Assembly (NCBI RefSeq): GCF_054482595.1
Contig: NZ_CM137008.1
Direction: 5' to 3' (one strand)
Length of the DNA: 64,000 bases
In this document: positions 33,777 to 44,297 of the stretch, in pieces
How positions within the stretch are numbered: the stretch's first letter is position 1
How the letters are laid out: each line of letters opens with the position of its first letter
Translations under genes and position numbers: made by a program
Notes under the pieces: model-generated
The model's input: the letters and a program-made list of their open reading frames with translations, nothing else
Told to the model about the DNA's origin: nothing
The model's database searches: none

Positions 33777-33869
33777 GGTGAGGTGGCCGAGAGGCTGAAG
33801 GCGCTCCCCTGCTAAGGGAGTATGCGGTCAAAAGCTGCATCCGGGGTTCGAATCCCCGCCTCACCGCCA
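33777..33869 (+). tRNA. serV: tRNA-Ser (anticodon GCU), 93 nt with long variable arm and encoded CCA
   Basis: GGTGAGGTGGCCGAGAGGCTGAAGGCGCTCCCCTGCTAAGGGAG...GGTTCGAATCCCCGCCTCACCGCCA; cloverleaf with GCT anticodon. Confidence 0.93.
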
Positions 33870-33872
33870 TTT

Positions 33873-33949
33873 GCATCCGTAGCTCAGCTGGATAGAGTAC
33901 TCGGCTACGAACCGAGCGGTCGGAGGTTCGAATCCTCCCGGATGCACCA
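33873..33949 (+). tRNA. argV: tRNA-Arg (anticodon ACG), copy 1 of 4
   Basis: GCATCCGTAGCTCAGCTGGATAGAGTACTCGGCTACGAACCGAGCGGTCGGAGGTTCGAATCCTCCCGGATGCACCA; 3 nt after serV. Confidence 0.93.
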
Positions 33950-34085
33950 TATTCTCCGTAACTTTCAGCGATGAAGGTATGGAAGAGGTGGCGGTACTAA
34001 CCGCAGGCACCAGGGAGGATAACGTTGCTTTAGCAACGGCCCGAAGGGCGAGCCGCAAGGCGAGTAATCCTCCCGGATGCACCAT
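33950..34085 (+). repeat. tRNA-operon spacer repeat unit A (about 136 nt) ending in a duplicated tRNA-Arg 3' end
   Basis: GC-rich structured segment ...ccgcaggcaccagggaggataacgttgctttagcaacggcccgaagggcgagccgcaaggcgagtaATCCTCCCGGATGCACCAt; last 17 nt identical to the tRNA-Arg 3' terminus. Followed by a 63-nt unit B (34086..34148). Confidence 0.8.
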
Positions 34086-34148
34086 CTCTTACTTGATACG
34101 GCTTTAGTAGCGGTATCAAAAAATCTGCAGTAAAGTAAGTTTCCCGAT

Positions 34149-34225
34149 GCATCCGTAGCTCAGCTGGATAGAGTACTCGGCTACGAACCGAGCGGTCGGA
34201 GGTTCGAATCCTCCCGGATGCACCA
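34149..34225 (+). tRNA. argY: tRNA-Arg (anticodon ACG), copy 2
   Basis: Identical 77-nt tRNA-Arg sequence. Confidence 0.93.
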
Positions 34226-34287
34226 TCTCTTACTTGATATGGCTTTAGTAGCGGTATCAATATCAGCAGTAAAATAAATTTCCCGAT

Positions 34288-34364
34288 GCATCCGTAGCTC
34301 AGCTGGATAGAGTACTCGGCTACGAACCGAGCGGTCGGAGGTTCGAATCCTCCCGGATGCACCA
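34288..34364 (+). tRNA. argZ: tRNA-Arg (anticodon ACG), copy 3
   Basis: Identical 77-nt tRNA-Arg sequence; preceded by a unit-B-only spacer (34226..34287). Confidence 0.93.
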
Positions 34365-34500
34365 TATTCTCCGAAATCTTCAGCAATGAAGATATCGAAG
34401 AGGTAGCGGAATTAACCGCAGGCACCAGGGAGGATAACGTTGCGCCAGCAACGGCCCGAAGGGCGAGCCGCAAGGCGAGTAATCCTCCCGGATGCACCAT
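34365..34500 (+). repeat. tRNA-operon spacer repeat unit A, copy 2
   Basis: Near-identical to 33950..34085, again ending in ...aATCCTCCCGGATGCACCAt; followed by unit B (34501..34562). Confidence 0.8.
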
Positions 34501-34562
34501 CTCTTACTTGATATGGCTTTAGTAGCGATATCAATATCAGCAGTAAAATAAATTTTCCCGAT

Positions 34563-34639
34563 GCATCCGTAGCTCAGCTGGATAGAGTACTCGGCTACGA
34601 ACCGAGCGGTCGGAGGTTCGAATCCTCCCGGATGCACCA
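34563..34639 (+). tRNA. argQ: tRNA-Arg (anticodon ACG), copy 4
   Basis: Identical 77-nt tRNA-Arg sequence. Confidence 0.93.
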
Positions 34640-35956: not shown

Positions 35957-37540
<1,584 letters not shown>

Positions 37541-37548
37541 CAGAAAAG

Positions 37549-37621
37549 AAAAAGGCCACTCGTGAGTGGCCAAAATTTCATCTCTGAATTCAGGGATGAT
37601 GATAACAAATGCGCGTCTTTC
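37549..37621 (-). ncRNA. micA: MicA (SraD) small regulatory RNA, about 73 nt
   Basis: Minus strand reads GAAAGACGCGCATTTGTTATCATCATCCCTGAATTCAGAGATGAAATTTTGGCCACTCACGAGTGGCCTTTTT, which I recognise as MicA; ends in its hairpin (37554..37571) plus U-run. Lies between gshA and luxS. Confidence 0.92.
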
Positions 37622-37689
37622 ATATACTCAGACTCGCCTGGGAAGAAAGAGTTCAGAAAATTTTTAAAAAAATTACCGGAGGTGGCTAA

Positions 37690-38205
37690 ATGCCGTTGTT
37701 AGATAGCTTCACAGTCGATCATACCCGGATGGAAGCGCCTGCAGTTCGGGTGGCGAAAACAATGAACACCCCGCATGGCGACGCAATCACCGTGTTCGAT
37801 CTGCGCTTCTGCGTGCCGAACAAAGAAGTGATGCCAGAAAGAGGGATCCATACCCTGGAGCACCTGTTTGCTGGTTTTATGCGTAACCATCTTAACGGTA
37901 ATGGTGTAGAGATTATCGATATCTCGCCAATGGGCTGCCGCACCGGTTTTTATATGAGTCTGATTGGTACGCCAGATGAGCAGCGTGTTGCTGATGCCTG
38001 GAAAGCGGCAATGGAAGACGTGCTGAAAGTGCAGGATCAGAATCAGATTCCGGAGCTGAACGTCTACCAGTGTGGCACTTACCAGATGCACTCGTTGCAG
38101 GAAGCGCAGGATATTGCGCGTAGCATTCTGGAACGTGACGTGCGCATCAACAGCAACGAAGAACTGGCGCTGCCGAAAGAGAAGTTGCAGGAACTGCACA
38201 TTTAG
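37690..38205 (+). CDS. luxS: LuxS, S-ribosylhomocysteine lyase (171 aa)
   Basis: [25 protein letters not shown]... with HTLEH metal-binding motif. Confidence 0.96.

Positions 38206-44213: not shown

Positions 44214-44297
<84 letters not shown>

Follow-up and report, generated by a model that had tools for sequence, protein, structure and literature searches.

MicA belongs with RybB and MicL to the small RNAs that are transcribed from sigma-E promoters, bind Hfq and repress mRNAs for outer-membrane proteins or lipoproteins; RybB and MicL are unrelated to MicA in sequence and are encoded at other loci. To our knowledge, MicA is the only one of these sigma-E-dependent sRNAs that is antisense to the leader of a neighbouring gene. 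The dependence on sigma-E has been demonstrated for the very promoter sequence considered here, in a study that also remarked on an AT-rich element at the promoter and published northern blots of MicA for the identical sequence (Udekwu & Wagner 2007, PMC1851643). The neighbouring gene is luxS, and northern blots together with primer extension have shown that MicA and RNase III convert long luxS mRNAs to a short one; over-expression of MicA alters the luxS transcript pattern, and the level of LuxS protein is unaffected (Udekwu 2010, PLoS One 5:e13449). Among more general arrangements, the bidirectional promoters described by the Grainger laboratory have common spacings of 18, 10 and 23 bp, with small variations allowed (NAR 2026, gkag028).

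The locus examined here lies in a stretch of 64,000 nucleotides, referred to below as the window, to which all positions refer. In the list of open reading frames (ORFs), 37541-37689 is a 149-bp spacer with gshA upstream and luxS downstream. The gshA coding sequence (glutamate-cysteine ligase) is a 518-residue ORF at 35984-37540 (+) that begins with TTG at 35984, and its limits agree with the RefSeq annotation of identical DNA. The luxS coding sequence (S-ribosylhomocysteine lyase), identified as a 171-residue ORF and by annotation, occupies 37690-38205 (+) and is preceded by a Shine-Dalgarno sequence, GGAGG, at 37678-37682 (+), 7 nt ahead of the ATG. The ORFs and the K-12 annotation place micA between the two genes on the strand opposite to both, such that it is convergent with gshA and divergent from luxS.

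An alignment with E. coli K-12 MG1655 reveals no mismatch in the spacer or at either of its edges, and K-12 coordinates are converted to window positions by subtraction from 2852423. The 391 aligned bases contain five substitutions, all within gshA and outside the P1 promoter of luxS, and no spacer difference that could set this copy apart from K-12 is found in this alignment. The 401 bp around the spacer are present in 5,423 of 5,426 complete E. coli genomes, with 100% identity in many of them. The Rfam family MicA (RF00078) matches the minus strand at 37550-37621 across model positions 1-75 of 75, with a score of 83.9 bits (E = 3e-12) against a gathering score of 41 bits; the Rfam scan returns no other RNA family in the spacer at the gathering threshold. 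A sequence-only reading of the DNA had recognised MicA as an RNA of about 73 nt on the minus strand of the gshA-luxS spacer, divergent from luxS. The Rfam match, together with the identity of the spacer to K-12 DNA in which micA (b4442) is annotated at the matching bases, confirms this observation; the placement and strand far exceed chance, and the length is 72-76 nt. Identity, anatomy, conservation and geometry were computed in the present analysis, and sigma-E dependence, transcript starts, 3' ends and RNase III processing come from published work on K-12, whose sequence here is identical.

On this combined basis, we are highly confident that the interval is the canonical E. coli micA locus, physically interleaved with luxS transcription. 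This sRNA gene has been characterised thoroughly, and the window carries its type copy at the customary position with the customary signals; the micA promoter, the terminator and the overlap with luxS transcription have all been published before, with nothing new added by this copy.

The wider surroundings contain further RNA features. A tandem tRNA cluster at 33777-34639 (+), consisting of a tRNA-Ser(GCT) followed by four tRNA-Arg(ACG) with identical Rfam scores, lies approximately 1.3 kb upstream of yqaB-yqaA-gshA, and comparable runs of Arg tRNA genes occur near micA in Yersinia, Klebsiella, Pantoea, Serratia, Tatumella and others. Additionally, naRNA4 (RF02564) matches 44219-44296 (-) with 76.4 bits (cut-off 59.5); the matched sequence is an intergenic REP/BIME-type repeat with two GC-rich palindromes.

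The MicA RNA occupies 37546-37621 (-). Its +1 at 37621 corresponds to K-12 2814802 in the table of PMC7967276, the annotated 3' end lies at 37549/37550, and Term-seq places the 3' end at 37546 (K-12 2814877) under each of the three growth conditions (Adams et al. 2021, supplementary file 1). A minus-strand micA transcript from 37546-37621 is therefore already documented by published dRNA-seq and Term-seq data. The RNA starts with GAAAGACGCG from 37621, and its predicted fold (-20.5 kcal/mol, z = -2.98 relative to shuffles) leaves the 5' region open and forms an internal stem-loop and then a GC stem of 7 bp followed by UUUUUCUUUU. The internal stem-loop (nt 23-44, 37578-37599, -) appears in this fold, in the Rfam consensus structure and in the alignment fold. 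The single-stranded 5' seed (nt 8-24, 37598-37614, -) is complementary to positions -21 to -6 of ompA, and the corresponding duplex has an energy of -23.1 kcal/mol, which is reached by none of 1000 shuffles. The ompA gene is absent from the window, and the K-12 gene was used for this comparison; pairing full-length MicA with the whole ompA leader yields an unrealistic end-to-end duplex, and a 26-nt seed test was used instead. In the cell, the unstructured nt 8-24 pair, with the aid of Hfq, with ompA and other envelope mRNAs at their ribosome-binding regions and thereby repress them.

Upstream of the +1, a sigma-E-type core promoter is present at 37628-37654 (-), with a -35 element GAACTC (37654-37649), a 16-bp spacer and a -10 element TCTGA (37632-37628) whose end is separated from the +1 by 6 bp. 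Promoters of the sigma-E type have a -35 resembling GGAACTT and, after about 16 bp, a -10 resembling TCTGA or TCAAA. The pattern GAACT-N17-TCTGA occurs once in the 64-kb window, where 0.11 occurrences are expected. Beyond the -35 lies an AT-rich element (37655-37676, -) with a conserved T/A-run, and the opposite strand of this element belongs to the luxS leader. During envelope stress, RNA polymerase carrying sigma-E binds GAACTC-N16-TCTGA (37654-37628) and initiates the minus-strand transcript at 37621.

The proximal promoter of luxS is a sigma-70-like element at 37599-37636 (+), with a -35 element ATGATA (37599-37604), an 18-bp spacer and a -10 element TATACT (37623-37628). In a consensus scan, it is the sole sigma-70-like site in 37200-37900, with a match to 9 of 12 consensus positions, of which 0.6 would be expected by chance in 700 bp. 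The start predicted from these elements, approximately 37635-37636, agrees with the start at 37636 (K-12 2814787) determined by dRNA-seq (Thomason 2015, as tabulated in PMC7967276). The -35 element falls within the MicA seed, and TATACT on the plus strand shares base T 37628 with TCTGA on the minus strand. The two divergent starts, 37621 for micA and 37636 for luxS, are thus 15 bp apart, and the micA +1 is 68 bp from the luxS ATG. With 37628-37676 taken up by the micA -10, -35 and AT-rich element, and 37678-37682 by the Shine-Dalgarno sequence of luxS, there is no space for a separate luxS promoter. The sequence-only reading had set the micA and luxS promoters back to back within about 70 bp; the sigma-E-type promoter of micA is present as proposed, but the two promoters interpenetrate rather than lie side by side. 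The -10 of the proximal luxS promoter abuts the opposite-strand micA -10, with its -35 inside the body of micA, and we infer that sigma-E and sigma-70 polymerases would be unable to occupy the shared -10 region together.

The 5' ends of luxS mRNA, for which De Lay and Gottesman reportedly performed the first 5' RACE in 2009, are more numerous than this single start. A distal promoter, P1, is located within gshA at 37345-37359 (+), with its published start at G -332 (window 37358/9) and a dependence on sigma-S (rpoS) (Udekwu 2010, PLoS One 5:e13449). The -10-like element TATGAT of P1 (37345-37350, with a C at 37344) was placed here by reading the sequence and is not taken from that paper; the P1 stretch is unchanged relative to K-12, and the P1 start, micA coordinates and primer sites of the same paper map unchanged onto the window. 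A second luxS 5' end at 37585 (+; K-12 2814838), which may have arisen by initiation or by processing, is listed in the table of PMC7967276 and gives a 37-nt antisense overlap with the 5' end of MicA. The P2 ends, described as lying 'within MicA', were independent of TAP treatment, and a fusion carrying luxS -84 to +6 (37606-37695) showed no promoter activity (Udekwu 2010, PLoS One 5:e13449). In the text of that paper, an overlap of 14-15 nt with MicA is given for the short luxS species, whose end would then fall near 37607/8; this disagrees with the dRNA-seq table, in which the start at 37636 lies 15 bp to the luxS side of the micA +1. The short species was both enriched by TAP and dependent on RNase III, a combination that its author found "perplexing" (Udekwu 2010, PLoS One 5:e13449). 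The longer luxS mRNAs from 37585 and 37358/9 cross micA in antisense, and MicA together with RNase III trims them to the short form.

At the other end of the RNA, the MicA intrinsic terminator (37544-37571, -) is formed by the stem GGCCACU/AGUGGCC at 37554-37571 and the following UUUUUCUUUU. The terminator scan and the fold agree on a Rho-independent type, with a 7-bp stem containing five G-C pairs and a U-tail, TTTTTCTTTT; such a terminator with its U-tail constitutes the Hfq-binding 3' module. Transcription of micA halts at this GC hairpin and U-run (37571-37544), 5-9 bp from the gshA stop codon, to yield the RNA of 72-76 nt. The hairpin begins 13 bp past the gshA stop, in keeping with the earlier description of a terminator adjoining that codon, which had further supposed that the hairpin may also terminate gshA transcripts. 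The scan flags the hairpin on the minus strand only, and the gshA-sense tail after the stem is AAAATTTC. In all 120 sequences scored, the 8 nt past the stem contain 5-7 T on the micA strand versus 0-4 on the gshA-sense strand; a U-tract on both sides is thus not found in these sequences, and the hairpin lacks the U-tract by which a bidirectional intrinsic terminator is defined. Transcripts from luxS P1 pass through the hairpin (Udekwu 2010, PLoS One 5:e13449).

A gshA-sense 3' end at 37562 (+; K-12 2814861) is nevertheless recorded in one of three Term-seq conditions, and it lies in the loop of the hairpin rather than past the stem. A different condition yields a strong 3' end in the gshA sense at 37509 (K-12 2814914), among the final 32 nt of the gene (Adams et al. 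2021, supplementary file 1). The gshA-sense RNA therefore sometimes ends at the hairpin, in a manner that does not look like canonical termination, and a role of the hairpin as a gshA terminator is weakly supported. One possibility is that the 37562 end results from cleavage of a putative duplex between gshA-sense RNA and MicA. Additionally, Term-seq locates a Rho-dependent termination region antisense to gshA at approximately 37178 (-; K-12 2815245, + strand), approximately 370 nt beyond the micA terminator, and this points to read-through on the micA strand or to a distinct antisense transcript there.

Conservation was assessed in a pattern scan of species-representative genomes, in which MicA nt 3-27 served as the search pattern and 120 loci were recovered from Enterobacteriaceae, Erwiniaceae, Yersiniaceae, Pectobacteriaceae and Hafniaceae. 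The order gshA, opposite-strand micA and luxS is found at every locus with sufficient flanking sequence. In 111 of 119 loci, 66-92 bp separate the micA +1 from the luxS ATG, and in 112 of 114 the U-run of MicA, taken as its 3' end, finishes 4-22 bp from the gshA stop; each of ten diverse loci exceeds the Rfam threshold for MicA. In the micA promoter, AAC of the -35 and GTCT.A of the -10 are at least 90% conserved among 110 distinct promoters, with a T/A-rich run upstream; in the plus-strand luxS -10, A2 and T6 are retained in 77 of 97 distinct homologues. The 5' part of MicA is near invariant in a 38-sequence subset of 89 distinct homologues, an invariance that counts only outside nt 3-27 because these nucleotides defined the search. 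In the same subset, compensatory changes are present in 3 of 13 stem pairs, with a covariation term of -0.17 kcal/mol; as the stems are near invariant, covariation says little about the fold, and the structure is supported by the Rfam model and the energy z-score.

The spacing is not uniform. Eight species carry 50-110 extra bases between the micA AT-rich element and the luxS Shine-Dalgarno sequence (approximately 37673-37676 in the window), which indicates that the tight fit of micA and luxS is not obligatory. These loci (L006, L013, L023, L038, L044, L047, L048 and L052) come from Superficieibacter, Enterobacter sp. BIGb0383, Pluralibacter, Kluyvera, Pseudocitrobacter and the Enterobacteriaceae isolate RIT691 (L044), and folding predictions give the extra bases a long hairpin within the luxS leader, with -23 to -33 kcal/mol for the whole spacer. 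Two other loci are unusual as records. In Enterobacter sp. EA-1 (L108, CP025776.1), the tblastn matches to gshA and luxS are fragmented and frame-shifted with an intact MicA seed, and this fragmentation could be real pseudogenisation or a product of assembly indel errors. A record titled Martelella alba BGMRC 2031 (L122), which bears an alphaproteobacterial genus name, contains a typical enterobacterial gshA-micA-luxS locus with a LuxS 86.6% identical to that of E. coli; there may be an error in the assembly or in the name given to it.

The compactness of the spacer admits readings other than interleaved transcription units. If two separate promoters stood back to back within about 70 bp and a bidirectional terminator closed the other side, the packing might serve to couple stress and quorum responses. 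The divergent orientation, the published luxS start at 37636 inside the 68-bp stretch, the tight spacing in most Enterobacterales, the gshA-sense 3' end that one Term-seq condition records at the hairpin and the shift of the luxS transcript pattern upon MicA over-expression all fit this arrangement, but we regard it as very unlikely. It is largely refuted by the inactivity of the luxS -84 to +6 fragment, and the occupation of 37628-37676 by micA elements leaves a separate luxS promoter without space, the luxS -35 lying within micA itself. The terminator half of the proposal meets the count of 0-4 T in 8 nt on the gshA-sense side across the 120 sequences, a scan that flags the minus strand only, the read-through of P1 transcripts and a gshA-sense 3' end situated in the loop. 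The coupling meets the unchanged level of LuxS protein and the eight species with 50-110 extra bp, in which a tight fit is dispensed with. The statement in the sequence-only reading that the packing implies coupled envelope-stress and quorum-sensing regulation therefore overreaches: luxS mRNA is processed and LuxS protein is unchanged.

The packing may alternatively be a matter of history, with micA having arisen in an already short gshA-luxS spacer and the overlap with luxS being tolerated noise with no regulatory output; we consider this a serious possibility, somewhat short of an even chance. MicA is known as an enterobacterial RNA, which favours this reading, although the loci recovered here, all from Enterobacterales, cannot show that MicA is absent elsewhere because they were found by a search with MicA sequence. 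One survey found gshA upstream of luxS in all Gammaproteobacteria sampled, from which it follows that the adjacency of these genes is probably older than micA. The unaffected LuxS level upon MicA over-expression, the tolerance of insertions between micA and luxS in eight species, and a 2015 review that termed the effect of MicA on luxS unclear and mentioned only a possible 'sterical influence' point in the same direction. Against mere noise stand the reproducible MicA- and RNase III-dependent conversion of luxS mRNA seen by northern blot and primer extension, the retention of the plus-strand -10-like hexamer in 77 of 97 distinct homologues, and the finding in Salmonella that deletion of the luxS coding sequence alters the MicA level and biofilm formation independently of AI-2. 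That a small protein is encoded instead of, or besides, the RNA has a negligible probability. The mechanical ORF list does include a 48-aa ORF at 37477-37623 (-) and a 46-aa ORF at 37562-37702 (+), but conservation tracks the RNA stems and the seed, and the length-changing indels seen in the loops would break a reading frame. The ATG of the 48-aa ORF is at 37623-37621, and the ORF runs antisense into gshA; since its G is the MicA +1, the AUG is missing from the transcript. The start codon of the 46-aa ORF is a GTG within the hairpin, and this ORF runs over the luxS start in a different frame.

Within the canonical, interleaved locus, it is conceivable, if unlikely, that MicA is linked to two effects beyond pairing in trans, namely occlusion of the luxS promoter and shaping of the 3' end of gshA mRNA. 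In the putative occlusion, activation of sigma-E would directly shut the proximal luxS promoter through footprints that overlap at approximately 37601-37656; if true, this would be a switch by exchange of holoenzymes, separate from the processing by RNase III. In the putative effect on gshA, MicA could shape the gshA 3' end if the end at 37562 were generated by cleavage of a duplex between MicA and read-through RNA.

The value of the locus is mainly one of caution, not discovery. Because the micA promoter lies in the luxS leader and the luxS promoters lie in or beyond micA, deletions or fusions of luxS can disturb MicA, and vice versa. The altered MicA level and biofilm formation of the Salmonella luxS deletion likewise indicate that the micA and luxS loci interfere mutually. 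Quorum-sensing work has already been misled in this way: the biofilm defect of that deletion was traced to the level of MicA and not to the loss of AI-2.

A comparison with the known systems reveals both shared and distinct features. The locus resembles bidirectional intrinsic terminators in that gshA and micA converge on one GC hairpin, and differs from them in that the T-run of the hairpin is present on the micA strand only. It resembles the bidirectional promoters of the Grainger laboratory in its overlapping opposite-strand -10 elements and close divergent starts, with a distance of 15 bp, within the range of approximately 10-23 bp, and the shared base at 37628; the 15-bp distance is not among the spacings named in that study, which makes no mention of micA or luxS (NAR 2026, gkag028). 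In those promoters, pseudo-symmetric sigma-70 elements are read both ways, whereas a single pseudo-symmetric sigma-70 -10 for both directions is not found here: micA uses a sigma-E -10 (TCTGA) and -35, and luxS uses the sigma-70-like TATACT, such that two holoenzymes would compete at the site. The window shows no sequence difference from the described MicA/luxS cis-antisense pair (Udekwu 2010, PLoS One 5:e13449). Relative to the type member of MicA (SraD, psrA10; RF00078; b4442), there is likewise no difference and the window copy is not a variant: the sequence, the two stem-loops, the U-tail, the sigma-E-type promoter, the ompA seed and the position are all alike.
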